Origin: Escherichia coli
Lineage (GTDB): Bacteria > Pseudomonadota > Gammaproteobacteria > Enterobacterales > Enterobacteriaceae
Direction: 5' to 3' (one strand)
NCBI RefSeq assembly: GCF_003334785.1
Contig: NZ_QOWV01000002.1
DNA length: 64,000 nucleotides
The position numbers were made by a program, and so were the translations under genes. A model generated the notes under the pieces. That model was given only the letters and a program-made list of their open reading frames with translations, was not told where the DNA came from and made no database searches. This document shows positions 22,809 to 51,682 of this stretch, piece by piece. Numbering within the stretch: position 1 is the stretch's first letter; the number at the start of each line of letters is the position of its first letter.

Positions 22809-22868
22809 AAAAGCGGCAACGAACAAAACAAACGCAGCCTCACCTGGCATCAAATTTATGAGGAAAAA

Positions 22869-25366: not shown

Positions 25367-25376
25367 AGGAGAACGC

Positions 25377-26771
25377 ATGCCATTTAAAAAACTCTCCCGA
25401 CGCACCTTCCTGGCGGCAAGCTCGGCGCTTGCCTTCCTCCATACCCCTTTCGCTCGCGCACTTCCCGCCCGACAAAGCGTTAACATTAACGACTACAACC
25501 CACACGACTGGATCGCCTCATTTAAACAAGCCTTCAGCGAAGGGCAAACGGTCGTCGTGCCTGCCGGATTGGTTTGTGACAATATCAACACCGGCATCTT
25601 CATTCCTGCAGGTAAAACGTTACACATCTTGGGAAGCCTGCGCGGCAACGGCAGAGGGCGATTTATCTTACAGGACGGCAGCCAGGTGACAGGGGAGGAG
25701 GGCGGCAGTATGCATAACATCACCCTGGATGTGCGTGGCTCTGACTGCACCATCAAAGGGCTGGCGATGAGCGGCTTTGGCCCGGTAACGCAGATTTATA
25801 TCGGCGGCAAAAACAAACGGGTCATGCGCAACCTGACCATCGATAATCTCACCGTTAACCACGCTAATTACGCTATTTTGCGCCAGGGATTTCATAACCA
25901 GATAATCGGTGCCAACATCACCAATTGTAAGTTCAGTGACTTACAAGGCGACGCCATTGAATGGAACGTGGCAATTAACGACAGTGATATTTTGATATCT
26001 GACCATGTCATCGAGCGCATCAACTGTACTAACGGCAAAATCAACTGGGGCATTGGCATAGGTCTTGCGGGAAGTACCTACGATAACAACTACCCGGAAG
26101 ACCAGGCAGTGAAAAACTTTGTCGTGGCGAATATCACGGGATCGGATTGTCGGCAGTTGATCCATGTTGAAAATGGCAAACATTTTGTTATTAGTAATAT
26201 CAAAGCCCGCAATATCACGCCGGATTTCAGTAAGAAAGCGGGCATTGATAACGCCACGGTCGCTATTTACGGTTGTGACAATTTCGTGATTGATAATATT
26301 GAAATGATTAATAGCGCCGGGATGTTAATCGGCTATGGGGTAATTAAAGGCAAATATCTCTCGATACCGCAAAATTTCCGAGTGAATAATATTCAACTGG
26401 ATAATACCCACCTTGCTTATAAATTGCGCGGTATCCAAATCTCCGCCGGGAATGCCGTCTCCTTTGTGTCGCTAACTAATATTGAGATGAAGCGTGCCTC
26501 GCTGGAGTTACACAACAAGCCGCAACATCTTTTTATGCGTAATATCAATGTGATGCAGGAATCCTCTGTTGGACCCGCATTGATCATGAACTTCGACATG
26601 CGCAAAGACGTTCGAGGCGTCTTTATGGCGAAAGAAGAAACACTGCTGTCTCTTGCAAATGTTCATGCGGTGAATGAAAGAGGGCAAAGCTCCGTCGATA
26701 TCGACAGGATTAATCACCATATTGTTAATGTGGAAAAGATTAACTTTAGATTGCCGGAACGGAGGGAGTAG
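25377..26771 (+). CDS. wcaM: Colanic-acid biosynthesis protein WcaM (secreted, beta-helix-like)
   Basis: 464 aa; N-terminal signal-like segment; last gene of the cluster. Confidence 0.85.
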
Positions 26772-26945
26772 ATTTGCGACCATTCCTGGAAAAATGGAGC
26801 CATACTTAGGAACAATGCTACTGCAATCCACAACGAAGCGGCGTAACATCACAAGTAATTCAGTAATCAATTCAGGGTAATTGATGCTGGCGAAAAAAAT
26901 CGAACAAGCTATAATTCAGCAACCATTTTACAGGTGGATGAAATA

Positions 26946-27839
26946 ATGACGAATTTAAAAGCAGTTATTCCTGTAGCGGGTCTTGGGATGCATATGTTGC
27001 CTGCCACTAAGGCGATTCCCAAAGAGATGCTACCGATCGTCGACAAGCCAATGATTCAGTACATTGTTGACGAGATTGTGGCTGCAGGGATCAAAGAAAT
27101 CCTCCTGGTAACTCATGCGTCCAAGAACGCGGTCGAAAACCACTTCGACACCTCTTATGAATTAGAATCTCTTCTTGAACTGCGCGTGAAGCGTCAACTA
27201 CTGGCGGAAGTTCAGTCCATCTGCCCGCCGGGCGTGACCATTATGAACGTACGTCAGGGCGAACCTTTAGGTTTAGGTCACTCCATTTTGTGTGCACGAC
27301 CCGCCATTGGTGACAACCCATTTGTCGTGGTGCTGCCAGACGTTGTGATCGACGACGCCAGTGCCGACCCGCTGCGCTACAACCTTGCAGCCATGATTGC
27401 GCGCTTCAACGAAACGGGCCGCAGCCAGGTGCTGGCAAAACGTATGCCGGGTGACCTCTCTGAATACTCCGTCATTCAGACCAAAGAACCACTGGATCGT
27501 GAAGGTAAAGTCAGCCGCATTGTTGAATTTATCGAAAAACCGGATCAGCCGCAGACGCTGGATTCAGACATCATGGCCGTTGGTCGCTATGTGCTTTCTG
27601 CAGATATTTGGCCGGAACTTGAACGCACTCAGCCTGGTGCATGGGGGCGTATTCAGCTGACTGATGCCATCGCTGAACTGGCGAAAAAACAGTCTGTTGA
27701 TGCCATGCTGATGACAGGTGACAGCTACGACTGCGGTAAAAAAATGGGTTATATGCAGGCATTTGTGAAGTATGGACTACGCAACCTGAAAGAAGGGGCG
27801 AAGTTCCGTAAAGGTATTGAGAAGCTGTTAAGCGAATAA
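26946..27839 (+). CDS. galF: UTP-glucose-1-phosphate uridylyltransferase paralog GalF
   Basis: Start at [14 protein letters not shown]; flanks the O-antigen cluster. Confidence 0.9.
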
Positions 27840-28097
27840 TGAAAATCTGACCGAATGTAACGGTTGATAAGAAAATTATAACGGCAGTGAAGATTCGTGG
27901 CGAAAGTAATTTGCTGCGAATATTCCTGCCGTTGTTTTATATAAACAATCAGAATAACAACGAGTTAGCAATAGGATTTTAGTCAAAGATTTCCAGGATT
28001 TTCCTTGTTTCCAGAGCGGATTGGTAAGACAATTAGCGTTTGAATTTTTCGGGTTTAGCGCGAGTGGGTAACGCTCGTCACATCGTAGACATGCATG

Positions 28098-28136
28098 CAG
28101 TGCTCTGGTAGCTGTAAAGCCAGGGGCGGTAGCGTG
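28098..28136 (+). promoter_or_regulatory. JUMPStart element with ops motif GGCGGTAGCGTG (28125..28136) upstream of the O-antigen operon
   Basis: cagtgctctggtagctgtaaagccaggggcggtagcgtg read directly; near-repeat of 3596..3638. Confidence 0.85.
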
Positions 28137-28195
28137 CTGAAATTATAAAGTCATTCTTATAGAACATCGCATTTCAATAATATAATTACACCTAA

Positions 28196-29452
28196 ATGAA
28201 TAGGATACAACGTGTGCATAATTATTTAAGGCTTAAAGATAAAATAAAAAACGTATTTTTAGGGTTATATATATTGCAGTTATTTAATTATATCGCGCCA
28301 TTGGTAATTATCCCTATCCTGATAAAATATATTGGGTTGGGGGAATATGGGGAATTAGTCTATATTACATCTATTTATCAAATAGTGGCTTTGTTTATTG
28401 ATTTTGGCTTTACTTACACAGGACCTGTGGTTGCTGCGAGACATAAATGTGAGATCCAAAATTTACAGCGCTATTACTCAATAGTTGTTCTTTTAAAATC
28501 ATTGCTTTTTATAATTGCATTAACATGTGTATTTTTATTGTGCAGATTAAATATAGTCCACTTGTCATTTTTGGGGTTTTTGTCAATTTTTCTATGCTCT
28601 ATTGGTAATATAGTATCGCCCAATTGGTTTTTGCAGGGGATTGGTGATTTTAAAAAACTTTCATACTCTCAAGTAATAGTGAGAATAACATTGTTTATCA
28701 TGCTTCTTGTTTATGTCTGTAGTGGCGGAGATAATGTTTTTATCTTAAGTTTTTTACAAAATGCAACATTACTCATATGCTGTATATACTTATGGCCAAA
28801 TATTCATATTAGCCATGTTGTTCATCTTAAACCTAATGAATGCATTGTGGAATTTAAGAAGGCAGGAAATGTTTTTATTGGCGTAATAGGTACGATTGGT
28901 TACAATGGTCTAATTCCTGTGTTAATTGGAAACCTTTGCGGTAATACGAGTCTTGGTGTTTTTTCAATCGTTCAAAAAATGACAACAGCATGTCAAAGCC
29001 TAATTAATCCAATATCACAGTATATGTTATCACAAGTTTCAGAAATTAAACCTCAAGATGAACTGTTTTATTATAGAATTAAAAAAAGTTTTTTTGTGCA
29101 TTTAACAATTAGCATAATTGCATGTTTATGTTATATGGGGTTAGGGCAATATGTGGCGACTTTTATAGGTAAAGTTGACGTTTCATTTGTTATTATTTTA
29201 TATGCGTCAGTAATTACAATTTTTTCATCTTTAAATAATGTCCTTGGTATACAGTTTCTTATACCGACAGATAATGTAAAAATACTGCGAAGTATAAATG
29301 TTATAGCGGGAATTATTGTTGTTAGTTTGTCCTGGCTGTTAATATCACGCTTTGACATTCTGGGGGGGGTTTTATTAAATCTAATTGGTGAGTTTCTTGT
29401 ATTCAGTATGCTAGCTTTTATTGCCCATCGTAAGTGGGGAGCGAGAGTATAA
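28196..29452 (+). CDS. wzx: O-antigen flippase Wzx (MOP superfamily)
   Basis: 418 aa, about 12 predicted membrane spans, AT-rich; first gene after JUMPStart. Confidence 0.75.
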   Translation: MNRIQRVHNYLRLKDKIKNVFLGLYILQLFNYIAPLVIIPILIKYIGLGEYGELVYITSIYQIVALFIDFGFTYTGPVVAARHKCEIQNLQRYYSIVVLLKSLLFIIALTCVFLLCRLNIVHLSFLGFLSIFLCSIGNIVSPNWFLQGIGDFKKLSYSQVIVRITLFIMLLVYVCSGGDNVFILSFLQNATLLICCIYLWPNIHISHVVHLKPNECIVEFKKAGNVFIGVIGTIGYNGLIPVLIGNLCGNTSLGVFSIVQKMTTACQSLINPISQYMLSQVSEIKPQDELFYYRIKKSFFVHLTISIIACLCYMGLGQYVATFIGKVDVSFVIILYASVITIFSSLNNVLGIQFLIPTDNVKILRSINVIAGIIVVSLSWLLISRFDILGGVLLNLIGEFLVFSMLAFIAHRKWGARV

Positions 29453-30795
29453 TGAAAGTGAAGGCGGTTCCTGCTATTACATTCTATTTAAGTTTAATGC
29501 TGACAATTTTAGTGTTACTGTTTGGTAATGAACCAAATAAATCACAATATATTCTTGTTATAGCAACGATAACAGTTTTTTATATCGCGTATATCACTAA
29601 TAAAATAACTTCTCCGGCCAGCCTTCTCGTTATATCATCTTTTGTGTTTTTAGGTTGTCGACCTTTATTATCTTTGTTTGCAAACTATGATTACAGGATT
29701 GCCGATTGGTTTATTGAAGGATATATGGATGACGATGTGATTATGGCTAACTATGCTATAACATTAATGTATTATGGTTATACATTGGGACTAATTCTAT
29801 GCAGAAATACTGAAAAAATTTATCCGCATGGATCATATCCAGAGAAACAATTGCTAAAAATAAAGTTTCTTTTGACTTTATTTTTTCTGGGTTCGATAGG
29901 TATGGTTGTGAAAGGGATATTCTTTTTTAACTTTATAGAATCTAATAGTTATGTTGATATATATCAATCAAATATAACAACGCCAATAGGTTATGATTTT
30001 CTGTCTTATTTGTTTTATTGTTCTTTTTTCCTTATATGTGCGTTTCATATACAGTTCAGAACAAATAAAAAATTTCTTTTTATTGCGATATGCATTGCTG
30101 CATTTAGCACCTTGAAGGGTAGTCGTAGTGAAGCTATAACGTTTCTTTTAACGGTTACATGTATATATTTTAATGAAGTAAAGACAAGAAACTTACGTTT
30201 GCTGATTACAATGATTTTTGTTTTTAGCGTCATTTTTGTGATTAGTGAATTTATCTCAATGTGGCGCACTGGAGGGAGTTTTATTCAATTAATGCAGGGT
30301 AATAATCCTGTTATAAACTTTGTATACGGCATGGGAGTATCATATCTTTCCATTTATCAATCAGTAAAACTACAACTATTGTCAGGGGGGTATAATGTTA
30401 CCTATCTATTCAGCCAGTTAATAATAACTTGCTCGTCAATATTTAATGTTAAATTGAGCTTGCCGGAAATAAGCTATAGCCATTTGGCCTCATACACAGC
30501 AAACCCAGAACTATATAATCTTGGGTTCGGACTTGGGGGAAGTTATTTAGCAGAATCGTTTTTAGCATTTGGTCTTATTGGGTGTTTCATAATACCCTTT
30601 TTACTTTTACTTAATTTAAATGTATTGGAAAAATACACAAAAAACAAACCAATCATATATTTTGTTTATTATAGTGTGTTGCCACCTATATTATTCACAC
30701 CAAGAGAGACTTTGTTCTATTTCTTCCCCTATCTTGTCAAAAGTATATTTGTTGCTTTTTTAGTTACATTATACATCCAGTATAAAAAGGATTGA
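29452..30795 (+). CDS. wzy: O-antigen polymerase Wzy (putative)
   Basis: Highly hydrophobic polytopic protein; ATG at 29452 overlaps the wzx stop (TAATG); the ORF track offers an upstream start at 29434. Confidence 0.65.
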   Translation: MKVKAVPAITFYLSLMLTILVLLFGNEPNKSQYILVIATITVFYIAYITNKITSPASLLVISSFVFLGCRPLLSLFANYDYRIADWFIEGYMDDDVIMANYAITLMYYGYTLGLILCRNTEKIYPHGSYPEKQLLKIKFLLTLFFLGSIGMVVKGIFFFNFIESNSYVDIYQSNITTPIGYDFLSYLFYCSFFLICAFHIQFRTNKKFLFIAICIAAFSTLKGSRSEAITFLLTVTCIYFNEVKTRNLRLLITMIFVFSVIFVISEFISMWRTGGSFIQLMQGNNPVINFVYGMGVSYLSIYQSVKLQLLSGGYNVTYLFSQLIITCSSIFNVKLSLPEISYSHLASYTANPELYNLGFGLGGSYLAESFLAFGLIGCFIIPFLLLLNLNVLEKYTKNKPIIYFVYYSVLPPILFTPRETLFYFFPYLVKSIFVAFLVTLYIQYKKD

Positions 30796-30800
30796 CGAAA

Positions 30801-31661
30801 ATGTCAGAAAAAAATGTCAGCATAATAATCCCAAGTTATAACAGGGCTCATATTCTTAAGGAGGTCATACCAAGTTATTTTCAGGATGAGACTTTAGAGG
30901 TAATAGTTATCAATGATGGATCAACAGATAATACAAATAGTGTATTAGCTGAACTGAAGGAAAAATATTCTCAATTAGTTATTTTAGAAAATGATACGAA
31001 CAAAAAACAGATGTATTCTAAAAACCGAGGGATTGAAATAGCCAAAGGGAAATATATTTTTTTTGGTGATGATGACTCTTACCTCTTACCCGGTGTTATA
31101 TCTCGGTTATTGGCTACAAAATATGAGACAGGCGCTGATGTAATCGGCGCAAGAATACTCTATATGAATAATAACGAGAAAACAATTGAAGATTGCATAA
31201 ATCGACATAAAACAGAGGGGCGTTTTGTTAGTGATTTAAATAGATTGGATTTTAGTTATACATGTGATTTGGACCATCCGATTGAATGTTTTTATGCACA
31301 GTCTATTATTCTAGCTGAAAGGGAACTAATATCGAAATATCGATTTGATATATCTTATACGGGAAACTGCTATCGTGAGGAAACTGATTTCATGTTATCT
31401 CTTTTTATAAAAAATAAAAAATTTATATATGATTCAAAGGCTCTGTTAATAAATTTACCTCCACGAAAAGCGACGGGAGGGGCAAGAACAGCTAATCGAT
31501 TAAAATATCATTATGAAAGTTGCATAAATAATTATAGATTTTTAAAAAAATATAATGATAATTTGAATCTTCTTTCAGGACAAAAGCATGCTATATTTTA
31601 CCGACAGTGTCAATTCGTTCTGCTAAAAATTAAGTCGTTTATCGGGAAGTTTTTAAAATGA
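30801..31661 (+). CDS. Glycosyltransferase family 2 (O-unit synthesis)
   Basis: N-terminal SIIIPSYNRA...INDGSTDNT and downstream DDD motif typical of GT2; ATG 30801 preceded by aagga. Confidence 0.75.
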   Translation: MSEKNVSIIIPSYNRAHILKEVIPSYFQDETLEVIVINDGSTDNTNSVLAELKEKYSQLVILENDTNKKQMYSKNRGIEIAKGKYIFFGDDDSYLLPGVISRLLATKYETGADVIGARILYMNNNEKTIEDCINRHKTEGRFVSDLNRLDFSYTCDLDHPIECFYAQSIILAERELISKYRFDISYTGNCYREETDFMLSLFIKNKKFIYDSKALLINLPPRKATGGARTANRLKYHYESCINNYRFLKKYNDNLNLLSGQKHAIFYRQCQFVLLKIKSFIGKFLK

Positions 31662-32689
31662 TTGTATATATTGCCGCGTATAATGGTTCAGGAGGGCAAG
31701 GTGGGGTGGAAAGGGTTGTTGCCCAACAATGTAACATTCTTAAAAATTTGGGGGTTAAAGTCATTATACTTGATAAAGCATACTTCAAAATTTCTAACAA
31801 AATTCGTAACAAAAAAATACAAGTAGCACTTTATCCAATATTAGTTTCTCTTTATTTAACCTTACAAAAATTACGTGGCGTGACGTTTAAAGTTATTGCG
31901 CATGGCTATTGTTCTCCTTTTTATAGGAATGACATCTTAATAGCTCATGGCAATATGAAATGTTATTTTCAAACAGTCATGAAAAAAAAACCTAATCGAT
32001 TGTCCGGCAGTGGTCTTTTATCTTTCTATGAGCGTTTGGCTGGATCATTCTCAAAAAATATCTGGGCTGTTTCAAATAAGGTTAAAAGTGAATGGAATGA
32101 GCTTTACAATATTAATTCACATAAAATTAAAGTTGTTCGAAATTTTATAAATCTTGAACAATTTGATTGCACTGATGTTAATGAAGCACAATATGTGACA
32201 TTTGTCGGGCGATTGGAAAAAGGAAAAGGAATAGATGATCTGTATTACATATGTAAAAATCTGCCAGATACTTCCTTCCATTTAGTTTCAAGTATTCCCG
32301 CCCCACAAAATTTTGCTTCGCTAAATAATGTTCTGACCAGCATTGCTGTCCCCTATGCGAAAATGCCAGAAATATTTAAGAAATCCAGAGTACTTATTTT
32401 ACCGTCCTATTATGAAGGATATGAGCTGGTTACTATTGAAGCGCTATGCTGTGGTTGCCCTGTGATAGGCTATAACGTTGGTGCAATTAGAGAGTTGTAT
32501 GCTGAAAGTTTTCCTGGCGTGTTTATTGCCAATAATAAAGAAGATTTAGCACAAGTAGCCTACGAACTAATTAGTCTTGATAATGAAAAATATTATCATT
32601 TGAGACAAACTATTTATAGCAAGCGTGAGCTTTTTTCTGAAGAGAGATATGCGGAAATTTTAACGGCGGCATTTAATGAAAAAAAATAA
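31658..32689 (+). CDS. Glycosyltransferase, GT4/group-1 type
   Basis: 343 aa; C-terminal LPSYYEGYELVTIEA E-x7-E motif. Confidence 0.75.
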   Translation: MIVYIAAYNGSGGQGGVERVVAQQCNILKNLGVKVIILDKAYFKISNKIRNKKIQVALYPILVSLYLTLQKLRGVTFKVIAHGYCSPFYRNDILIAHGNMKCYFQTVMKKKPNRLSGSGLLSFYERLAGSFSKNIWAVSNKVKSEWNELYNINSHKIKVVRNFINLEQFDCTDVNEAQYVTFVGRLEKGKGIDDLYYICKNLPDTSFHLVSSIPAPQNFASLNNVLTSIAVPYAKMPEIFKKSRVLILPSYYEGYELVTIEALCCGCPVIGYNVGAIRELYAESFPGVFIANNKEDLAQVAYELISLDNEKYYHLRQTIYSKRELFSEERYAEILTAAFNEKK

Positions 32690-33821
32690 GAAACTATGTC
32701 TCATTTCAATTAACTCATATAATGAACTTACCGGAGGAGGAGTATATTTACGTACGCTTGTTAGTTTTCTACAAAAACAGAATGTTAATTTAACACTTAT
32801 TGATAAAAAATCTTCAGGTAAACTATTCGAAGACAATACTTTTCAACATATATCATTTATTAAAGGTAAACGTCAGGATATTATATCCAGGCTTTTTTTT
32901 ATACCATCATTTTATGTCCCTTATATTTTCTCAATAATTAAAATTTTACGGAAGCAAGATATTCTAGCTTTTCACAACTCTCGACTTGGATTGTTATGTC
33001 TGCTTTTTAGAATACTCATGCCCCATAAAAAGATCATATTGTTTACGGATAACTTCGAATATGACTTAATAAGACAAAAAGATAAAAACATAACTACTTT
33101 TGTTGAAAAAATAATTGTTTATCTCAATGAATTTATCGGGCTTAAGAATTCACATTTAGTTAGCTATATTACCCGGCAAGATAAAAATGCAATGGATAAA
33201 TTTTATGGGGTTAAAAAAAGCAGAAATTTAATTCTCCCTGTGATATTTAGTAGAGAAAAGCCAACTGATGTATTATCAGCTCACTTTATTAATGAGTATA
33301 ATCGATTGAATAATGATAATAGGAAAAAAGTAGTATTTACTGCATCTTTTGATTTTTTTCCAAATATAGATGCTGCCAACTATGTTTTAAATGCAGCAAA
33401 GTCGAATAATGATTATTGCTATATTTTGGCAGGTAGGAAAAGTACTACTTTGAATCTTCCTGATTTGGATAATTTATTTTTTTTCGATAATCTATCTAAT
33501 AGTGAAATGTCATATTTATTATCTGCTTGTGATATTTTTTATTCTCCTATAGTTTTAGGAAGTGGAATGAAAACAAAAATTGCAGAAGCGCTATCATATG
33601 GATTATATATTTATGCGACAGAGCATTCCTTAATCGGCTATGATGAAATTATAAACAACAAGGAGTGTGTTAAAAAAATCTCACATTTGGATGAGGAATT
33701 TCCTAAAGATTTCAAGGTGAAAAGTATCAATAAACAGCTAATAATGTCTTATCAGCAAAAATATTATTCACATTATCGGTTTAATGGCCATGAACTTGAC
33801 ATGATAAATATTGACGATTAG
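32676..33821 (+). CDS. Glycosyltransferase (probable GT4-like)
   Basis: 381 aa; general GT-B-like layout; weaker motif support than neighbours. Confidence 0.6.
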   Translation: MKKNKKLCLISINSYNELTGGGVYLRTLVSFLQKQNVNLTLIDKKSSGKLFEDNTFQHISFIKGKRQDIISRLFFIPSFYVPYIFSIIKILRKQDILAFHNSRLGLLCLLFRILMPHKKIILFTDNFEYDLIRQKDKNITTFVEKIIVYLNEFIGLKNSHLVSYITRQDKNAMDKFYGVKKSRNLILPVIFSREKPTDVLSAHFINEYNRLNNDNRKKVVFTASFDFFPNIDAANYVLNAAKSNNDYCYILAGRKSTTLNLPDLDNLFFFDNLSNSEMSYLLSACDIFYSPIVLGSGMKTKIAEALSYGLYIYATEHSLIGYDEIINNKECVKKISHLDEEFPKDFKVKSINKQLIMSYQQKYYSHYRFNGHELDMINIDD

Positions 33822-33837
33822 TTAGTGGAGATATAAT

Positions 33838-34845
33838 ATGAACATATTAGTAACTGGTGGTGCTGGATATATCGGATCTCATACGGCTATTGAATTACTA
33901 AATGCAGGTCATGAGATTATCGTTCTGGACAATTTCAGTAATGCTTCATACAAGTGTATCGAAAAAATAAAAGAAATTACTCGACGTGATTTTATAACAA
34001 TTACAGGAGATGCTGGGTGTAGGAAGACACTCTCCGCTATTTTCGAGAAACACGCCATAGATATAGTTATTCATTTTGCTGGCTTTAAATCTGTTTCAGA
34101 GTCTAAAAGTGAACCCTTAAAGTATTACCAAAATAATGTTGGAGTGACCATTACTTTATTACAGGTAATGGAAGAGTACAAAATTAAAAAATTTATCTTT
34201 AGTTCATCTGCGACAGTCTATGGTGAACCAGAGATAATTCCAATTTCAGAAACAGCTAAAATTGGAGGAACTACGAATCCATATGGCACATCGAAATATT
34301 TTGTTGAAAAAATTCTAGAGGATGTTAGTTCCACGGGAAAACTGGATATAATTTGCTTGAGATATTTTAATCCTGTCGGTGCTCATTCTAGTGGTAAAAT
34401 AGGTGAAGCTCCATCTGGTATCCCTAATAATCTTGTCCCTTATTTATTGGATGTTGCAAGTGGTAAACGTGATAAATTATTTATTTATGGCAATGATTAT
34501 CCTACTAATGATGGAACAGGTGTAAGAGATTTTATTCATGTTGTTGACTTAGCGAAAGGTCATTTGGCTGCAATGAATTATTTAAGTATCAATTCGGGAT
34601 ATAATATCTTTAATCTTGGTACAGGAAAAGGTTATTCAGTGCTTGAATTAATCACTACATTTGAAAAATTAACAAACATTAAGGTCAATAAATCTTTTAT
34701 AGAGAGAAGGGCAGGGGATGTTGCGTCTTGTTGGGCTGATGCAGATAAAGCTAATTCTTTATTGGACTGGAAAGCCGAACAAACTCTAGAACAGATGTTA
34801 TTGGACTCGTGGCGTTGGAAAAAAAATTATCCAGACGGATTCTGA
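33838..34845 (+). CDS. gne: UDP-hexose / UDP-N-acetylhexosamine 4-epimerase (GalE/Gne family)
   Basis: 335 aa; N-terminal TGGAGYIGSH Rossmann motif and YGTSK catalytic motif of short-chain epimerases. Confidence 0.8.
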   Translation: MNILVTGGAGYIGSHTAIELLNAGHEIIVLDNFSNASYKCIEKIKEITRRDFITITGDAGCRKTLSAIFEKHAIDIVIHFAGFKSVSESKSEPLKYYQNNVGVTITLLQVMEEYKIKKFIFSSSATVYGEPEIIPISETAKIGGTTNPYGTSKYFVEKILEDVSSTGKLDIICLRYFNPVGAHSSGKIGEAPSGIPNNLVPYLLDVASGKRDKLFIYGNDYPTNDGTGVRDFIHVVDLAKGHLAAMNYLSINSGYNIFNLGTGKGYSVLELITTFEKLTNIKVNKSFIERRAGDVASCWADADKANSLLDWKAEQTLEQMLLDSWRWKKNYPDGF

Positions 34846-34865
34846 ATAAAAAAGGTTTCAGTTTT

Positions 34866-36071
34866 ATGAATCAATCAGAGCAGAGAAAAAAAATACTGGT
34901 TCTTACACCTCGCTTTCCCTACCCTGTCATTGGAGGGGATAGATTAAGAGTCTATATGTTATGTAAAGAACTTTCCAAAAAATATGATCTTATTCTTCTG
35001 AGCTTATGTGATCAACCACTAGAACTTGAAATAAATATAAATGACTCGGTCTTCAAAGAAATTCATCGTGTCTATCTACCAAAATATAAATCATATTATA
35101 ATGTATTTAAAGCTTTGGTTACGCAAAAACCGTTGCAAATTGCTTATTATCAATCGGACACATTTAAGAATAAATACAATAAATTAATTAAACAATGCGA
35201 TGCAGTATTTTGTCATCTAATAAGAGTTGCTGATTATGTTAAGGATACAGACAAGTTCAAAATTCTTGATATGACAGATGCAATATCTTTGAATTACAGT
35301 CGCGTTAAAAAATTAGCAAGTAAAAAAAGTTTGCGTGCAATTATTTATTCTCTGGAACAAAAAAGATTAGAATCATATGAGCGTTCTGTGGCGAATCTTT
35401 TTGATTTGACCACTTTTATTTCATCCGTAGACCGTGACTATCTCTACCCTAATCCGGGCAGTAATATCCATATAGTCAATAATGGGGTTGATACATCAGC
35501 CTTGAGATATATAAAAAGAGAAATAAAAATCGATAAGCCGGTGGAACTTATATTTATCGGAAATATGTATTCTTTACAAAATATGGATGCTGCAAAAAAT
35601 TTTGCTAAGAATATTTTACCTTGCTTGCATGATGAGTTTAATATTATTTTTAAAGTGATTGGTAAGATCTCAGAAACTAATAAAAATATATTAAATTCAT
35701 TTAAAAATACAATTGCTTTAGGTACTGTTGATGATATCAATTCTTCCGCTTCTACAGGGCATATAGGTATATGTCCTGTTCGTCTTGGAGCAGGCGTACA
35801 AAATAAAATTCTTGAATACATGGCTTTAGGTTTACCATGTATTACATCTAGCATTGGTTATGAAGGTATTAATGCAAAATCTGGTAGCGAAATTTTTGTT
35901 GCAGATACAGTAGAGCAATATAAAAACGTACTAAGAGAAATAATTTACGATTATAATCGTTATACTGAAGTGGCTGAAAATGCCCGTAGTTTTGTAGAAA
36001 ATAATTTTTCTTGGGAATCAAAAGTTGCCAATTTAATGAATATATTAGATGAGAAATTATATGAACAATAA
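34866..36071 (+). CDS. Glycosyltransferase, GT4/group-1 type
   Basis: Start at [20 protein letters not shown] (internal Met of ORF 34809..36071); GT4 layout. Confidence 0.7.
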
Positions 36072-37500
36072 TAAAATTATTACACCTATCATTATGGCAG
36101 GTGGTTCAGGCAGTCGGTTGTGGCCACTATCAAGAATTCTCTATCCGAAACAATTTCTTAGCCTAAACGGTAGTCATACCATGCTTCAAACAACGGCTAA
36201 TCGTCTGGATGGTTTGGATTGTACCAACCCTTATGTCATTTGTAATGAACAACACCGCTTTATAGTTGCTGAACAGCTTAGAAAAATCGATAGATTGACT
36301 TCAAAGAATATCATCCTTGAGCCTGTTGGGCGTAACACTGCCCCTGCAATTGCATTAGCGGCGTTGCTGATGTCTAAGTCTGATAAAAGTGCAGATGATC
36401 TTATGCTCGTACTGGCTGCAGATCACGTTATATTAGATGAAGAAAAATTTTGTAACGCTGTTAGATCGGCAATTCCATACGCTGCTGATGGGAAATTGGT
36501 AACATTTGGTATAATTCCAGACAAAGCAGAAACTGGTTATGGTTATATACATCGAGGACAATATATTAATCAGGAAGATTCGGATGCATTTATAGTGTCA
36601 TCATTTGTTGAAAAGCCAAATCATGAGACAGCCACTAAATATCTTGCTTCCGGTGAGTATTATTGGAATAGCGGTATGTTTTTGTTTAGTGCAAATCGTT
36701 ATATAGAGGAACTTAAACAATTTCGGCCTGATATTTTATCCGCTTGTGAAAAAGCAATTGCTTCAGCGAACTTTGACCTTGATTTTGTGCGTTTAGATGA
36801 AAGTTCTTTCTCTAAGTGTCCTGAAGAGTCAATTGATTACGCTGTAATGGAAAAAACAAAAGACGCAATTGTTATTCCAATGGATGCTGGCTGGAGTGAT
36901 GTCGGTTCATGGTCTTCTCTTTGGGAAATTAATGATAAAGACTCAGACGGCAACGTAATAGTTGGGGATATTTTCTCTCATGAAACAAAGAATTCTTTCA
37001 TATATGCCGAATCGGGAATTGTTGCTACAGTGGGAGTGGAAAATTTAGTTGTTGTCCAAACAAAGGATGCCGTTCTTGTCTCAGAGAGAAATAAAGTTCA
37101 GGATGTAAAGAAAATAGTCGAACAAATTAAAAATTCAGGTCGTAGCGAGCATTATGTTCATCGCGAAGTATATCGTCCTTGGGGTAAATATGATTCCATT
37201 GACACAGGGGAGCGTTATCAGGTCAAACGTATAACAGTAAATCCTGGTGAAGGACTTTCTTTACAAATGCACCATCATAGGGCAGAACATTGGATCATAG
37301 TTTCTGGAACTGCAAAGGTGACTATAGGTTCTGAAACTAAGATTCTTAGCGAAAATGAATCTGTTTACATACCTCTTGGTGTAATACACTGCTTGGAAAA
37401 TCCAGGGAAAATTCCTCTTGATTTAATTGAAGTTCGTTCTGGATCTTATTTAGAAGAAGACGATGTTATCCGTTTTCAGGACCGATATGGTCGCAGCTAA
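36061..37500 (+). CDS. manC: Mannose-1-phosphate guanylyltransferase (O-antigen copy)
   Basis: Protein close to CpsB ([14 protein letters not shown]), but DNA is AT-rich and diverged from cpsB. Confidence 0.9.
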
Positions 37501-37582
37501 ATTTTTGATAATGTAACGTTAGTAGAAGAACGCTAATATTTTTAGTTAATCTGTAATAAGTATTATTTGTTTAAGGTATATC

Positions 37583-38953
37583 ATGTCGAGTTTAACCTGC
37601 TTTAAAGCCTATGATATTCGCGGGAAATTAGGCGAAGAACTGAATGAAGATATCGCCTGGCGTATTGGGCGTGCCTATGGCGAATTTCTCAAACCGAAAA
37701 CCATTGTGTTAGGCGGTGACGTCCGCCTCACCAGCGAAACCTTAAAACTGGCGCTGGCGAGAGGTTTACAGGATGCGGGCGTCGATGTGCTGGATATCGG
37801 CATGTCCGGCACCGAAGAGATCTATTTCGCCACGTTCCATCTCGGCGTGGATGGCGGCATCGAAGTTACCGCCAGCCATAATCCGATGGATTATAACGGC
37901 ATGAAGCTGGTTCGCGAGGGGGCTCGCCCGATCAGCGGAGATACCGGACTGCGCGACGTCCAGCGTCTGGCTGAAGCCAACGACTTTCCTCCCGTCGATG
38001 AAACCAAACGCGGTCGCTATCAGCAAATCAACCTGCGTGACGCTTACGTTGATCACCTGTTCGGTTATATCAATGTCAAAAACCTCACGCCGCTCAAGCT
38101 GGTGATCAACTCCGGGAACGGCGCAGCGGGTCCGGTGGTGGACGCTATCGAAGCCCGCTTTAAAGCCCTCGGCGCACCTGTGGAATTGATCAAAGTGCAC
38201 AACACGCCGGACGGCAATTTCCCCAACGGTATTCCTAACCCGCTGCTGCCGGAATGTCGCGACGACACCCGCAATGCGGTCATCAAACACGGCGCGGATA
38301 TGGGCATTGCCTTTGATGGCGATTTTGACCGCTGTTTTCTGTTTGACGAAAAAGGGCAGTTTATCGAGGGCTACTACATTGTCGGCCTGCTGGCAGAAGC
38401 GTTCCTCGAAAAAAATCCCGGCGCGAAGATCATCCACGATCCACGTCTCTCCTGGAACACCGTTGATGTGGTGACTGCCGCAGGTGGCACGCCGGTAATG
38501 TCGAAAACCGGACACGCCTTTATTAAAGAACGTATGCGCAAGGAGGACGCCATCTACGGTGGCGAAATGAGCGCCCACCATTACTTCCGTGATTTCGCTT
38601 ACTGCGACAGCGGCATGATCCCGTGGCTGCTGGTCGCCGAACTGGTGTGCCTGAAAGAGAAAACGCTGGGCGAACTGGTACGCGACCGGATGGCGGCGTT
38701 TCCGGCAAGCGGTGAGATCAACAGCAAACTGGCGCAACCCGTTGAGGCGATTAACCGCGTGGAACAGCATTTTAGCCGTGAGGCGCTGGCGGTGGATCGC
38801 ACCGATGGCATCAGCATGACCTTTGCCGACTGGCGCTTTAACCTGCGCTCCTCCAACACCGAACCGGTGGTGCGCCTGAATGTGGAATCGCGCGGTGATG
38901 TGCCGCTGATGGAAGAAAAGACAAAACTTATCCTTGCGTTATTGAACAAGTAA
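37583..38953 (+). CDS. manB: Phosphomannomutase (O-antigen copy)
   Basis: 456 aa; DNA nearly identical to cpsG across most of its length. Confidence 0.95.
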
Positions 38954-39116
38954 TTCAGTATTTTCATATAAATAAGTTTTAAAAGACGGAAAAGATGAGA
39001 TATTCAGTGTGGTATAGCAAAGGTACTGCTATTCACCATCTCTATGAGTGAGTTAACATCTATACCACATTTAAGCCGCACACTCGGCGGTGAACACCCC
39101 CTGACAGGAGTAAACA

Positions 39117-40523
39117 ATGTCAAAGCAACAGATTGGCGTCGTCGGTATGGCAGTGATGGGGCGCAACCTTGCGCTCAACATCGAAAGCCGTGGTTATACC
39201 GTCTCTATTTTCAACCGTTCCCGTGAGAAGACGGAAGAAGTGATTGCCGAAAATCCAGGCAAGAAATTGGTTCCTTACTTTACGGTAAAAGAGTTTGTTG
39301 AATCTCTGGAAACGCCTCGTCGCATCCTGTTAATGGTGAAAGCAGGTGCAGGCACGGATGCTGCTATTGATTCCCTCAAGCCATACCTCGATAAAGGTGA
39401 CATCATCATTGATGGTGGTAACACCTTCTTCCAGGATACTATTCGTCGTAACCGTGAGCTTTCTGCAGAAGGTTTTAACTTCATTGGTACCGGTGTTTCC
39501 GGCGGTGAAGAAGGCGCGTTGAAAGGGCCGTCCATCATGCCAGGTGGGCAGAAAGAAGCCTATGAACTTGTTGCGCCGATCCTGACCAAAATCGCCGCAG
39601 TGGCTGAAGACGGTGAGCCATGCGTTACCTATATCGGTGCCGATGGCGCAGGCCATTATGTGAAGATGGTACACAACGGTATTGAATACGGCGATATGCA
39701 GCTGATTGCTGAAGCCTATTCGTTGCTTAAAGGCGGCCTTAATCTCTCTAACGAAGAACTGGCGCAGACGTTTACCGAGTGGAATAACGGTGAACTGAGC
39801 AGCTACCTGATCGACATCACCAAAGATATCTTCACCAAAAAAGATGAAGACGGTAACTACCTGGTTGATGTGATTCTGGATGAAGCAGCAAACAAAGGTA
39901 CCGGTAAATGGACCAGCCAGAGCGCGCTGGATCTCGGCGAACCGCTGTCGCTGATTACCGAGTCTGTGTTTGCACGTTATATCTCGTCTCTGAAAGATCA
40001 GCGCGTTGCCGCGTCTAAAGTTCTCTCTGGCCCGCAAGCACAGCCAGCAGGCGACAAGGCTGAGTTCATCGAAAAAGTTCGCCGTGCGCTGTATCTTGGC
40101 AAAATCGTTTCTTACGCTCAGGGCTTCTCTCAGCTGCGTGCTGCGTCTGAAGAATACAACTGGGCTCTGAACTACGGCGAAATCGCGAAGATTTTCCGTG
40201 CTGGCTGCATCATCCGTGCGCAGTTCCTGCAGAAAATCACCGATGCTTATGCCGAAAATCCGCAGATCGCTAACCTGCTGCTGGCTCCGTACTTCAAGCA
40301 AATTGCCGATGACTACCAGCAGGCGCTGCGTGATGTCGTCGCATATGCAGTACAGAACGGTATCCCGGTTCCGACCTTCGCCGCTGCGGTTGCCTATTAC
40401 GATAGCTACCGTGCCGCTGTTCTGCCTGCGAACCTGATCCAGGCACAGCGTGACTATTTCGGTGCGCATACTTATAAGCGCATTGATAAAGAAGGTGTGT
40501 TCCATACTGAATGGCTGGATTAA
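39117..40523 (+). CDS. gnd: 6-phosphogluconate dehydrogenase, decarboxylating
   Basis: 468 aa; N-terminal [20 protein letters not shown]-binding motif. Confidence 0.95.
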
Positions 40524-40550
40524 TCTGATTTAACCAACAATAAAATTGAG

Positions 40551-40583
40551 GCCCGGCGTATATTGCACCGGGCTTTTTTTTGC
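40551..40583 (+). terminator. Rho-independent terminator after gnd
   Basis: Hairpin gcccgg...ccgggc followed by an 8-T run. Confidence 0.65.
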
Positions 40584-40762
40584 CAATTATCTTATAGACT
40601 AAATTTCACTGCTTAATATTAACTTAATAAATATCAGCTATTCTTATAAAGAAAATCTGAATTGTTTTTCGTTGCGTTGACCATCGAACAACGTAGCGTT
40701 AAAACTTTTAGCTCTTATCAGGATGCTAAAAACATCATGATTCACAGTTAAGTTAATTCTGA

Positions 40763-41938
<1,176 letters not shown>

Positions 41939-42080
41939 CATCTTGTTATCAGGGCTATTTACGCCCTGATTGTCTTTTGTTACTTACGCAACAATTCATT
42001 ATTTTTATCACTTATCCTATAGCATTCACGGGGATTATCGCTAAACTATGCGGACTTGGAAATTTCCGTCAGTTAGGGTA

Positions 42081-43061
42081 ATGATGAGAGTAGAAAATAA
42101 TAATGTTTCTGGGCAAAATCATGACCCGGAACAGATTGATTTGATTGATTTACTAGTGCAGTTGTGGCGTGGCAAGATGACAATCATCATTTCCGTCATT
42201 GTGGCTATTGCCCTGGCTATTGGTTATTTGGCAGTCGCGAAGGAGAAATGGACGTCAACAGCAATTATCACTCAGCCCGACGTGGGGCAAATTGCTGGCT
42301 ATAACAATGCCATGAATGTTATCTATGGTCAGGCTGCACCGAAAGTATCGGATTTACAGGAGACGTTAATTGGTCGCTTCAGTTCTGCTTTCTCTGCATT
42401 AGCAGAAACGCTGGATAATCAGGAAGAACCAGAAAAACTTACCATCGAACCTTCTGTTAAGAACCAGCAATTACCATTGACTGTTTCTTATGTTGGGCAA
42501 ACTGCAGAGGGAGCACAAATGAAGTTGGCCCATTACATTCAGCAAGTTGATGATAAAGTGAATCAAGAGCTAGAAAAGGATCTCAAAGACAACATTGCTC
42601 TGGGACGGAAAAACTTGCAGGACTCTTTAAGAACCCAGGAAGTGGTTGCGCAGGAGCAGAAAGATCTGCGTATCCGTCAGATTCAGGAAGCGTTGCAGTA
42701 TGCGAATCAGGCGCAGGTGACAAAGCCACAGGTTCAGCAGACTGAAGATGTGACACAAGATACGTTGTTCCTTTTGGGGAGCGAAGCGCTGGAGTCGATG
42801 ATTAAGCATGAGGCGACCCGTCCGTTGGTGTTCTCGCCAAACTACTATCAGACACGTCAAAACCTGTTGGATATTGAAAACTTAAAGGTTGATGATCTTG
42901 ATATTCATGCTTACCGCTATGTGATGAAACCGACGTTACCTATTCGTCGCGATAGTCCGAAAAAGGCAATCACCTTGATTCTGGCAGTGCTTCTGGGCGG
43001 CATGGTTGGCGCGGGGATTGTGTTGGGGCGTAATGCTCTGCGTAATTACAACGCGAAGTAA
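42081..43061 (+). CDS. wzzB: O-antigen chain-length determinant WzzB
   Basis: Start at MMRVENNN; two membrane spans flanking a coiled-coil-rich periplasmic region; C-terminal GGMVGAGIVL. Confidence 0.9.
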   Translation: MMRVENNNVSGQNHDPEQIDLIDLLVQLWRGKMTIIISVIVAIALAIGYLAVAKEKWTSTAIITQPDVGQIAGYNNAMNVIYGQAAPKVSDLQETLIGRFSSAFSALAETLDNQEEPEKLTIEPSVKNQQLPLTVSYVGQTAEGAQMKLAHYIQQVDDKVNQELEKDLKDNIALGRKNLQDSLRTQEVVAQEQKDLRIRQIQEALQYANQAQVTKPQVQQTEDVTQDTLFLLGSEALESMIKHEATRPLVFSPNYYQTRQNLLDIENLKVDDLDIHAYRYVMKPTLPIRRDSPKKAITLILAVLLGGMVGAGIVLGRNALRNYNAK

Positions 43062-43080
43062 TCTTTGCAGTTTTAAAGAA

Positions 43081-43116
43081 AACGGGCAGGGTGGTGACAC
43101 CTTGCCCGTTTTTTTG
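43081..43116. terminator. Bidirectional rho-independent terminator between convergent wzzB and hisI
   Basis: GC-rich hairpin acgggca...tgcccgt with T-run on the plus strand and T-rich tail on the minus strand. Confidence 0.6.
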
Positions 43117-43156
43117 CCGGATGCGACAACAATATCGCATCCGCTTACCCCGCAAC

Positions 43157-43761
43157 TCACTGATGCCGTTTACGCAGGTTCTCAATCACCGTCGTTAAGT
43201 CCAGATCCTGATCCTGCAACAGCACCAGCAGGTGATACATCAAATCAGATGCCTCGTTGGTCAGCTCAAAGCGGTCATGTACAGTCGCGGCCAGTGCGGT
43301 TTCCACCCCTTCTTCGCCCACTTTCTGCGCAATGCGTTTGGTGCCGCTGGCATACAGTTTGGCGGTGTAAGAGGTTTCCGGGTCGGCAGATTTACGTTCG
43401 GCGAGCAGTTGTTCCAGTTGATAAAGGAACAGCCACTGGTGAGCGGTGTCGCCGAAGCAGCTGCTGGTGCCTTTGTGGCAGGTCGGGCCGATGGGATTCG
43501 CCAGTACCAGTAGCGTGTCGTTGTCGCAGTCCGGCGTAATATTTACTACGTTGAGGAAATTGCCCGATGTTTCGCCTTTGGTCCACAGTCGCTGTTTAGT
43601 GCGCGAGAAGAAGGTGACTTTGCCGCTTTCGATGGTTTTGTCTAAGGCTTCCGGGTTCATATAGCCCAGCATTAACACTTCACCGGATACCGCGTGTTGC
43701 ACAATCACCGGCATAAGTCCGTCGGTTTTTTCCCAGTCCAGTTCGCGACGTTGTTGTTCTG

Positions 43762-43768
<7 letters not shown>
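43157..43768 (-). CDS. hisI: Bifunctional phosphoribosyl-AMP cyclohydrolase / phosphoribosyl-ATP pyrophosphatase
   Basis: 203 aa; his operon order. Confidence 0.95.
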
Positions 43769-45846
<2,078 letters not shown>

Positions 45847-45847
<1 letters not shown>

Positions 45848-46913
45848 TACAGCACTCCTTTCGACGAGGGCAGGGTGTCGCCTTCCACGCGGATGGCCTG
45901 GCGCAGGGTGCGACCAAAGGCTTTGAACAGACTCTCTACACGGTGATGATCGTTTTTACCTTTGGTTTTCAGGTGTAGCGTCACGCCCATGGTGTATGAG
46001 AGCGAACGGAAGAAGTGCTCGATCATTTCGGTGCTGAGATCGCCCACGCGCTGGTAGGTAAACTCGGCTTTATATTCCAGGTGCGGGCGACCAGAGATAT
46101 CCAGCGCGCAGCGGGCAAGGCATTCGTCCATCGGTAGCACAAAACCAAAGCGGCAAATACCGCGTTTGTCTCCGAGGGCGATTTTTAGCGCTTCGCCCAG
46201 CGCCAGGCCGGTATCTTCGACGGTGTGGTGATCGTCGATATAGAGGTCGCCTTTGACGTTGATTTCCATGCGGAAACCGCCGTGGGTGGCGATCTGATCC
46301 AGCATGTGATCAAAGAAGCCAACACCGGTGTTAATCTTGCTGCCACCTTCGCGATCCAGCCACACCTGGACGTCAATTTGCGTCTCTTTGGTGTTGCGCA
46401 CTACATGGGCGTAACGGTCTCGTTTAGTGAGTTGCTCGCCAATCATCGGCCAGTTCAGGATTTCGCGGTCGTAGCGTAAACCATTAATGCCCATGTTTTC
46501 CGCCAGTTGAATGTCGGTCGCGCGATCGCCAATCACATAACTGTTGGCACGGTCCATCGCTTGCTCAGCCAGATAACGCTCCACCAGTTTTACTTTCGGC
46601 TTACGGCAGTCGCACTCATCGGCGGGCAGGTGAGGGCAAATCAGCACTTCATCAAACTGCACGCCCTGTGAGGTGAAGATCTGCATCATCAGGTTGTGCG
46701 GGCCATCGAAATCCGCCTGCGGGAAACTTTGTGTTCCCAGACCATCCTGATTAGTGATCATCACCAGCTTGTAGCCCGCTTTTTGCAGCTTCAGCAGTTC
46801 CGGGATCACGCCCGGTTCAAAGGCGAGTTTGTCAAAACGGTCCACCTGAAAATCACTCGGCGGTTCGCTAATCAGGGTTCCATCGCGATCGATAAAAAGA
46901 TACTTCTGACTCA

Positions 46914-46914
<1 letters not shown>
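45847..46914 (-). CDS. hisB: Bifunctional histidinol-phosphatase / imidazoleglycerol-phosphate dehydratase
   Basis: Start at [14 protein letters not shown] (second Met of ORF), overlapping the hisC stop. Confidence 0.95.
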
Positions 46915-49285
<2,371 letters not shown>

Positions 49286-49290
49286 GGCGA

Positions 49291-50190
49291 TCACTCCATC
49301 ATCTTCTCAATCGGCAGGACCAGAATCGAACTGGCACCCAGCGCTTTCAGTTTTTCCATCGTTTCCCAGAACAGGGTTTCACTGCTGACCATGTGCATCG
49401 CTACGCGTTGTTGATCACCCGCCAGCGGCAGAATGGTTGGGCGTTCGGCACCAGGCAGCAGGGCGATGACTTCATCCAGGCGTTCGGTCGGTGCGTGCAT
49501 CATGATGTATTTTGATTCGCGCGCCTGGATCACACCCTGAATACGGGTCAGCAGTTTGTCGATCAGTTGCTGTTTGGATTCTTCCATTTCGCCATCGCGC
49601 TGGATAAGGCAGGCTTTCGAGCGGTAGATAACTTCGACTTCGCGCAGGCCGTTTGCTTCCAGCGTGGCACCGGTGGAAACCAGATCGCAAATCGCATCCG
49701 CCAGTCCGGCACGCGGGGCAACTTCGACAGAACCGTTCAGTAAGCAGGATTTAAAAGAGATGCCTTTCTGGTCGAGATAACGCTTGAGCAGGTGAGGATA
49801 AGAGGTGGCGATACGTTTACCGTTTAAGGAGAGCGGGCCGTCCCAGGCTTCATCAACCGGCGTTGCCAGCGAAAGGCGGCAGCCGCCGAAATCCAGACGA
49901 CGCAAGGTAAAGTAGCGCGGATCTTCACCCTGGGCGAGGCGGTTAAGCAGCTCTTCTTCCAGCACGTTTTCGCCGATAATCCCAAGGTCTACCACGCCAT
50001 CCATTACCAGACCGGGAATGTCGTCGTCACGCACGCGCAGAATATCAATCGGCATGTTTTCTGCCATCGCGATCAGGCGCTGGGTGTGAAGATTGATTTT
50101 AATACCACAGCGCGCCAGCAATTCACGTGAGTCATCACTTAAACGGCCGGATTTCTGCATAGCTATGCGTAAACGAGTGTTGTCTGTCAT
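49291..50190 (-). CDS. hisG: ATP phosphoribosyltransferase
   Basis: Start at [17 protein letters not shown] (internal Met), 299 aa. Confidence 0.95.
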
Positions 50191-50234
50191 TTTCTTATTC
50201 CTCTTTAAACCTGTCTGAACCGTTATCAATCGCG

Positions 50235-50272
50235 CAATAAAAAAGCCCCCGGAAGGTGATCTTCCGGGGGCT
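50235..50272 (-). terminator. his attenuator terminator hairpin
   Basis: Minus strand reads agcccccggaag-atcac-cttccgggggc followed by UUUUUUAUU, between hisL and hisG. Confidence 0.85.
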
Positions 50273-50335
50273 TTCTCATGCGTTCATGCACCACTGGAAG
50301 ATCTGAATGTCTTCCAGCACACATCGCCTGAAAGA

Positions 50336-50386
50336 CTAGTCAGGATGATGGTGATGATGGTGGTGTTTAAATTGAACGCGTGTCAT
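50336..50386 (-). CDS. hisL: his operon leader peptide (MTRVQFKHHHHHHHPD)
   Basis: Minus-strand 16-codon ORF with seven consecutive His codons upstream of the attenuator. Confidence 0.9.
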   Translation of the reverse strand: MTRVQFKHHHHHHHPD

Positions 50387-50600
50387 AAAAGTCTCTGTGA
50401 ATGTTTATTCAACTGATGTCTTTTAACCTAAACCACTTTCACGTTAGAAAGCAAGGGCTTTTTTATATATTTTATGGCAATGGATTTGTTTAATGAATGA
50501 GCGGGGAAAGGAGGGGGCCTGGAGTGACTACGTTAGAAAAGTAATCGTGAAAATATGTCTTTAAAACCCTCAAGAACATTGTGTTCTGTAACTAAAGTGG

Positions 50601-50712
50601 GATTTGTTCCTGCCGGATGCGGCGTGAATGCCTTATCAGGTCTACAAATATTGCCTAAATTCAATGTATTGATGTTTTTGTAGGACTGATAAGCGGAGCG
50701 CATCAGGCAATT
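50601..50712. repeat. REP cluster in the hisL-yeeZ intergenic region
   Basis: gccggatgcggcgtgaatgccttatcagg ... gactgataagcggagcgcatcaggc REP-type palindromes. Confidence 0.55.
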
Positions 50713-50812
50713 GTATATTTGCTAACAGTTTCGATTTCATTCATAGAATGAATTGTCAGTTTTGATACGCTAGCGTAGCCTTATAGATCTAAGGTGTATC
50801 AGGAGATAACGG

Positions 50813-51637
50813 ATGAAAAAGGTCGCAATTGTCGGGTTAGGGTGGTTAGGCATGCCGCTGGCGATGTCACTTTCAGCGCGAGGCTGGCAAGTCACCGGGA
50901 GTAAAACCACACAAGATGGTGTCGAAGCGGCCCGAATGAGTGGCATTGATAGCTATCTGCTTCGCATGGAGCCTGAGTTAGTTTGCGATTCTGACGATCT
51001 GGATGCCCTGATGGATGCCGACGCGCTGGTCATTACGCTTCCGGCACGTCGTAGCGGCCCCGGCGATGAGTTCTATTTACAAGCGGTACAAGAGTTAGTG
51101 GATAGCGCGCTGGCCCATCGTATTCCCCGAATTATTTTTACCAGCTCAACGTCTGTCTATGGCGACGCGCAAGGCACGGTGAAAGAAACCACCCCGCGTA
51201 ATCCGGTGACCAACAGTGGACGAGTATTAGAAGAACTCGAAGACTGGCTGCACAATTTACCCGGTACTTCGGTCGATATTCTGCGTCTTGCGGGGCTGGT
51301 CGGACCGGGGCGTCATCCCGGACGCTTCTTTGCCGGAAAAACCGCGCCTGATGGTGAACATGGTGTTAATTTAGTCCATTTAGAAGATGTTATTGGCGCT
51401 ATCACTCTGTTGTTACAGGCACCTAAAGGCGGACACATCTATAATATATGTGCGCCAGCTCACCCTGCGCGTAATGTTTTCTATCCGCAGATGGCCCGTT
51501 TACTGGGGCTTGAACCTCCGCAGTTCAGAAATAGTCTGGACAGCGGCAAAGGTAAGATTATTGATGGCAGTCGGATTTGTAATGAACTGGGATTTGAATA
51601 CCAGTATCCCGATCCGCTGGTAATGCCGCTGGAGTAA
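50813..51637 (+). CDS. yeeZ: NAD(P)-binding epimerase/dehydratase-family protein YeeZ
   Basis: 274 aa; N-terminal VAIVGLGWLG Rossmann motif. Confidence 0.85.
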   Translation: MKKVAIVGLGWLGMPLAMSLSARGWQVTGSKTTQDGVEAARMSGIDSYLLRMEPELVCDSDDLDALMDADALVITLPARRSGPGDEFYLQAVQELVDSALAHRIPRIIFTSSTSVYGDAQGTVKETTPRNPVTNSGRVLEELEDWLHNLPGTSVDILRLAGLVGPGRHPGRFFAGKTAPDGEHGVNLVHLEDVIGAITLLLQAPKGGHIYNICAPAHPARNVFYPQMARLLGLEPPQFRNSLDSGKGKIIDGSRICNELGFEYQYPDPLVMPLE

Positions 51638-51682
51638 ACGATCACGCCAGCAGGACGCCGCATGCACTGCAAGGGGGCGTGT

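Follow-up and report, generated by a model that had tools for sequence, protein, structure and literature searches.

The window, the whole stretch of 64,000 nucleotides of Escherichia coli DNA considered here, carries the colanic-acid cluster, galF, an O-antigen cluster of the O6 family, and then gnd, ugd, wzzB and the his operon (Table 1). The O6 cluster is composed of wzx, wzy, glycosyltransferase genes, a galE-like gene, manC and manB. The manB gene adjoins manC between galF and gnd, and lies inside the serogroup-specific cluster. An 11.1-kb segment is identical, save one base, in VE-F10, LR-64-2, PEC399 and other strains, and the region shows 99.8% identity to E. coli W and 98.2% identity to ATCC 25922-type strains. 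Base composition is heterogeneous. The O6-specific genes have a GC content of 31% and manC of 38%, while values of 56% and 29% are found for the interior and the tail of manB, respectively, and 55% for cpsG. At third codon positions, GC3 is 27% in manC versus 63% in its colanic-acid paralogue cpsB. Some intergenic features may also be described. The cpsB-cpsG spacer (18102..18293) contains palindromic, REP-like sequences, and the wzxC-wcaK spacer (22621..22808) contains two direct repeat units of 92 bp that are 94.6% identical; both spacers vary in length from strain to strain. In the O6 strain 2017-02-2CC, an IS421 element (IS4-like) is inserted at 1518..2630 of the corresponding locus (L003), and the 3' end of cpsB is truncated.

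Table 1. Positions of the genes, repeat copies, exchange tract and hybrid genes discussed in the text (window coordinates unless a locus handle is given)
Feature	Position	Strand	Remarks
cpsB, colanic-acid paralogue of manC	16665..18101	+	GC 56%; ORF list and PGAP annotation of relatives with near-identical sequence
cpsG, colanic-acid phosphomannomutase, 456 aa	18294..19664	+	Putative recipient of the recent tract; 15 substitutions relative to cpsG of VE-F10/NCTC9087, each giving the base of manB
Repeat copy 1 (cpsG codons 4-444)	18303..19626	+	1324 bp
Recent tract, maximum extent	18684..19368	+	685 bp; nearest cpsG/manB differences on either side at gene positions 390 and 1076
Recent tract, minimum extent	18818..19256	+	439 bp; gene positions 525..963; 15 strain-private substitutions
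Interval between the repeats	19665..37582	+	wcaJ, wzxC, wcaK, wcaL, wcaM, galF, O6 wzx, wzy, glycosyltransferases, galE-like gene, manC; annotation of relatives
manC, O6 cluster	36061..37500	+	GC 38%, GC3 27%; without homogenisation with cpsB
manB, O6 O-antigen cluster, 456 aa	37583..38953	+	Putative donor of the recent tract; sole difference from VE-F10 manB at 38338
Native, serogroup-specific 5' head of manB	37583..37591	+	ATGTCGAGT, versus ATGAAAAAA in cpsG
Repeat copy 2 (cpsG-like manB interior)	37592..38915	+	GC 56%
Single changed site of manB	38338	+	Gene position 756; T as in cpsG; the other O6 manB genes compared have C
Native AT-rich 3' tail of manB	38916..38953	+	GC 29%; O6-cluster-specific
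gnd, downstream flank	39117..40523	+	Adjoins the hybrid gene in deletion derivatives; ORF list, relatives
Chimeric cpsG::manB	L006, L007, L008: 10001..11371 each; L009: 9910..11280		
Chimeric cpsG::manB	L012, L026, L013: 3501..4871 each; L027: 3501..4870		

Ungapped comparison of the two repeat copies gives 27 mismatches over 1324 bp, or 97.96% identity, in agreement with the near-identity over some 1.3 kb noted in an initial annotation of this DNA. The products of cpsG and manB differ at 12 amino acids. Both repeats are on the same strand and 19,289 bp apart, so that the long direct repeat at about 19.3 kb described in that annotation is indeed present. The identity ends within the genes, as manB is diverged and AT-rich over 9 nucleotides at its start and 38 at its end. 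The flanking pair behaves differently: cpsB and manC reach only 65.9% identity at the DNA level and 72% at the protein level, and with GC contents of 56% and 38%, respectively, this bears out the view that manC is AT-rich and clearly diverged from its paralogue. Within the repeats, the longest identical run measures 685 bp (18684..19368, equal to 37973..38657). Were the 27 differences scattered by chance over the 1324 bp, an identical stretch at least as long would arise with a probability of about 8e-8. A difference-free block of roughly 690 bp had already been recognized, and only its borders have to be moved by a few bases. The antisense open reading frames at 18776..19018 and 38065..38307, also pointed out as identical, are so because they lie inside the 685-bp block, and they add nothing to the argument. 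In four other O6 genomes, the longest cpsG/manB identical run is 134-220 bp, versus 685 bp here. Chi sites (GCTGGTGG) are found at 16536, 19883, 22398 and 22524, none of them within either repeat.

The composition of manB points to an old exchange. Its interior (codons 4-444) is cpsG-like and GC-rich within the AT-rich O6 cluster, and the same diverged head and tail are present in all the O6 manB genes examined. In O75 and O157, the heads and tails of manB are also serogroup-specific, differing from those of O6 and from each other, and in each of the three serogroups the interior of manB resembles cpsG, from which it departs at 27-53 of 1324 positions. This is the same range as that observed between the cpsG alleles of different strains. 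In the O75 strain MCJCHV-1, the last 983 bp of manC (13384..14808 of locus L014) show 92.7% identity to cpsB, compared with only 65% in its 5' part, and there the colanic-acid-like replacement reaches from manB upstream into the 3' two-thirds of manC. Such a pattern is what would be expected if the native AT-rich manB had been overwritten from cpsG independently in several clusters. The arrangement of interior and ends in the O6 gene fits the published replacement of O-antigen manB genes by the colanic-acid gene. In a first layer, old and common to all O6 clusters, cpsG sequence would have overwritten the AT-rich interior of manB, with the first 9 and the last 38 nucleotides staying native.

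Exchange would not have stopped at this stage. A table of variable sites built from eight sequences reveals lineage-private variants common to both paralogues of one genome, at positions 456, 474, 504, 540 and 1245 in 2017-02-2CC and at positions 450 and 663 in ATCC 25922. Since these private variants occur in both paralogues, cpsG and manB act as one gene pool in each genome. A second layer would therefore consist of ongoing, patchy exchange, in both directions and in different lineages.

The most recent event is visible in the comparison of the window with VE-F10. Over positions 1..62124, the two sequences are separated by 22 substitutions and a single indel of 12 bp. Of the substitutions, fifteen fall in cpsG, between 18818 and 19256, one is found in manB, at 38338, and six are located elsewhere. 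The clustering of 15 of the 18 substitutions of a 26.6-kb stretch inside one 439-bp interval has a probability of about 1e-24. At all 15 changed sites, cpsG carries the base of manB, and the single change in manB carries the base of cpsG. As for the remainder of the alignment, the indel lies in wzzB (42354..42365), is in frame and is the only one in 62 kb. Collinearity with VE-F10 stops at 62124, beside a truncated cbtA gene, leaving 62125..64000 beyond it; in VE-F10, an ISL3-family transposase pseudogene is found just past this point.

The polarity of these changes was established with eight close relatives, namely seven clonal O6 strains and the O87 strain NCTC9087, which has no manB. The cpsG gene is identical in VE-F10 and NCTC9087 and has the other base at all 15 sites. 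Elsewhere, the base of NCTC9087 is that of the window at 601 and 14105 and that of VE-F10 at 635 and 22446 (the background substitutions at 601 and 635 are only 34 bp apart). From this mixed agreement, it follows that the cpsG state common to the relatives is ancestral and that of the window is derived. As the 15 cpsG sites have moved from an ancestral state to the manB base, the newest tract, of 439-685 bp, is read as a strain-private one that ran from manB into cpsG.

The initial annotation had proposed the opposite, a recent gene conversion from cpsG into manB. Recombination between the paralogues is upheld, and so is the historical origin of the manB interior from cpsG; the recent direction is not, with 15 cpsG sites turned to the manB base and one manB site changed. 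It is true that the old layer did run from cpsG to manB and that the base of manB at site 38338 gave way to that of cpsG. However, outside 38338, the manB gene of the window equals that of the seven relatives, and over gene positions 391-755 strain W, a more distant one, has the sequence of the block in its manB as well. A recent copying of the central block from cpsG into manB thus appears as the least credible of the alternatives considered here, and a tract from manB into cpsG is preferred.

A segment of cpsG could also have been replaced from another strain, either by a matching cpsG allele or by ectopic recombination with foreign O6 manB DNA. The region is a recombination hot spot in E. 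coli and cpsG alleles are mosaic. Nevertheless, when the 685-bp block is compared with 5,426 complete genomes, it is matched best, at 99.9% with one mismatch, by manB of the seven clonal O6 strains, the next-best matches being at 98.8% or lower. No cpsG in these genomes exceeds 98.8% to the block, the 99.9% matches being only to manB of the same clone, and a donor is present 19 kb away in the same chromosome. Horizontal import is in our opinion highly improbable, although slightly less so than the reversed direction, and a donor within the chromosome is favored.

Finally, the homogeneity of the block might be an artefact of assembly or polishing, two near-identical copies having been partly collapsed or cross-polished to one consensus. 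Both copies differ from the relatives in the same block, with a mixed parentage (15 manB-type sites and one cpsG-type site), as such an artefact may produce. Moreover, the window cpsG region has no match above 99.1% in the 5,426 complete genomes, even in strains with an identical O6 cluster, and the converted allele has been seen in one assembly, that of the window, with none alike in the complete genomes. On the other side, the homogenised sites form one contiguous block and isolated flanking differences, for instance at gene positions 1218 and 1267, were kept, though they would be as easily collapsed. Short reads within 525..963 would carry at least one discriminating site, and one contig spans both copies. 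The assembly is also clean, as judged from one in-frame indel of 12 bp and six other substitutions relative to VE-F10 over 62 kb. An artefact is considered unlikely, and a genuine tract from manB into cpsG is retained in what follows; of the three alternatives, the artefact nonetheless keeps the largest share of doubt.

The sole coding effect of the tract is T195A in CpsG (window position 18876, codon 195), VE-F10 and NCTC9087 having T195. With A195, the CpsG protein of the window is identical to the commonest CpsG protein in public data, which has entries in 10,918 blocks of the collection. The recombinant cpsG allele was not among ten loci fetched with the exact CpsG protein, each of which shows 28-49 DNA differences from the window cpsG. 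A 151-nucleotide pattern at the left junction was also tried as a marker of the allele. It retrieved one metagenome contig (L015) bearing a different allele, 95.7% identical, and the junction is not diagnostic.

How the tract was formed may be considered from its ends. The longest stretches of perfect identity between the two ancestral copies measure 134 bp (gene positions 391-524) and 112 bp (964-1075), and the ends of the tract lie exactly in these two runs. This is the signature expected of RecA-type strand exchange between diverged repeats. Strand exchange would start and finish in the 134-bp and 112-bp runs, and cpsG and manB would undergo concerted evolution through homologous recombination of the RecA type. 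The third layer would then be a private, non-reciprocal tract of 439-685 bp from manB to cpsG, which erased all 16 differences existing there. Fifteen of these 16 differences of the ancestral pair were resolved to the manB base, and the remaining one, at gene position 756, to the cpsG base. Hence manB, the putative donor of the tract, kept its base at 15 of the 16 informative sites and lost it at 38338. The change at 38338 is probably recombinational too, because a random mutation at one of the 16 sites giving precisely the base of the paralogue is very unlikely. It could correspond to another short tract, no longer than 185 bp, or to heteroduplex repair on both duplexes. A base-specific repair was envisaged for this site and discarded, because no base prevailed consistently over the 16 sites and position 756 does not stand in a CCWGG context. 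It should be stressed that a change of both copies, at 15 sites in cpsG and one in manB, counts against the account given here, as it is not predicted by a single simple non-reciprocal conversion and requires a second event or repair of two duplexes. The history of the block may thus comprise a single event or two.

The repeats also provide a substrate for rearrangement. A crossover between cpsG and manB would remove 19665..37582. The window itself has the intact two-copy arrangement, without deletion. Derivatives were searched for with a chimeric query composed of the 3' end of cpsB, a hybrid of cpsG 5' and manB 3' parts, and the 5' end of gnd. The order cpsB-(cpsG 5'/manB 3')-gnd occurs, as assembled, in eight of 5,426 complete genomes. 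In these eight, wcaJ through manC are lost and the hybrid stands directly downstream of cpsB; every hybrid has a cpsG-like start and a serogroup-specific manB tail, of O6 type in four genomes, O157 type in two and O75 type in two. VREC0864, TUM14697, isolate 127 and FDAARGOS_1249 show the order wcaI-cpsB-hybrid-gnd. The same deletion, with their own downstream remnants, is found in 7.1_Anguil (deposited as O157:H7) and CEC13002, which have the O157 cluster arrangement, and in JNEC-KY173 and SCU-176 (O75). The O75 matches in the search were mostly normal O75 clusters with a partly cpsB-like manC, and only these two were deletions. In isolate 127, the crossover took place between gene positions 13 and 72, and the sequence past the junction is 99.98% identical to ATCC 25922. 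Differences between the two O157 hybrids are confined to positions 1123-1260, which indicates different crossover points. Together, crossover points and hybrid sequences indicate that the eight deletions come from several independent events. The reciprocal duplication junction, manC-(manB 5'/cpsG 3')-wcaJ, is absent from the 5,426 genomes. Hence, of the deletion or duplication of wcaJ through manC suggested in the initial annotation, deletion is documented, in these eight genomes and in the long-term evolution experiment (LTEE, see below), and duplication is not, with no junction in 5,426 genomes. As cpsG-like sequence was found at 5,694 places in 4,678 genomes, that is with a second copy in about 1,000 genomes, the substrate for deletion is common.

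Altogether, a layered account in which an old overwriting of manB by cpsG was followed by two-way exchange and by a private tract from manB into cpsG, with the two copies serving as a deletion substrate, is likely in our view. A more general proposal is advanced with considerable reserve, and we would at present rather doubt it than accept it. Exchange might be frequent and two-way, manB regularly writing into the core cpsG gene at a rate comparable to that of point mutation over tens of kb. One event might alter both copies by means of a two-sided heteroduplex, and clinical lineages (O6, O157:H7, O75) might recurrently lose O antigen and colanic acid in one step.

No new mechanism is revealed by these data, whose value mainly lies in caution and calibration. 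The cpsG and manB genes are not independent markers in typing, phylogeny and variant calling, and pipelines that mask repeats will miss such exchanges. Moreover, the direction of a conversion is unreadable from a single genome, and close relatives are needed. Strains with an O-antigen manB carry, in the repeat pair itself, a recurrent path to becoming rough and colanic-acid-negative, a state found in about 0.15% of complete genomes. This state bears on serotyping failures, on sensitivity to phages and serum, and on the stability of O6 production or probiotic strains.

It is already known that manB may be colanic-acid-like, that it then evolves in concert with cpsG and that deletions arise between these genes, and in these respects the locus is an ordinary new instance. 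What is added here is a well-polarised, strain-private tract from an accessory manB into the core cpsG gene, as well as natural deletion derivatives in several serogroups. Colanic-acid-like manB genes have reportedly been described in O-antigen clusters of Salmonella. For O157, a passage of PMC3158064 citing Samuel et al. (2004, J Bacteriol 186:6536) mentions replacement of manB by the colanic-acid gene and suggests gene conversion. So far as these accounts go, the O6 case resembles those of O157 and Salmonella, with an O-antigen manB more than 95% identical to cpsG and GC-rich, next to an AT-rich, diverged manC. In contrast with what is related for them, the serogroup here is O6, the native head of 9 nucleotides and tail of 38 nucleotides are mapped, and the newest tract is reversed, from manB into the cpsG of the core genome.

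In the LTEE with E. coli B, manB and cpsG are 96% identical, deletion between them occurred repeatedly, and seven recombination events were recorded, with a deletion of 23,293 bp (Raeside et al., 2014, PMC4173774); a chimeric cpsG::manB gene has also been described there (bioRxiv 10.64898/2026.06.14.732165). The present deletions are of the same kind. In both cases, direct repeats about 96-98% identical lie some 20 kb apart, and a crossover yields a chimeric cpsG::manB gene with loss of O-antigen and colanic-acid genes. Unlike in the LTEE, the window is intact, and the deletions reported here are those of natural isolates, with tails of the O6, O157 and O75 types. More generally, ectopic gene conversion and concerted evolution affect bacterial paralogues such as tufA/tufB and the rRNA operons. 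The tract from manB into cpsG resembles these systems in its length of a few hundred bp, in the transfer, here probably non-reciprocal, from one paralogue to another located elsewhere, in its ends within runs of perfect identity, and in changes that are mostly synonymous. However, one of the two partners belongs here to a mobile, serogroup-specific cluster, so that the exchange links the accessory genome to the core genome.
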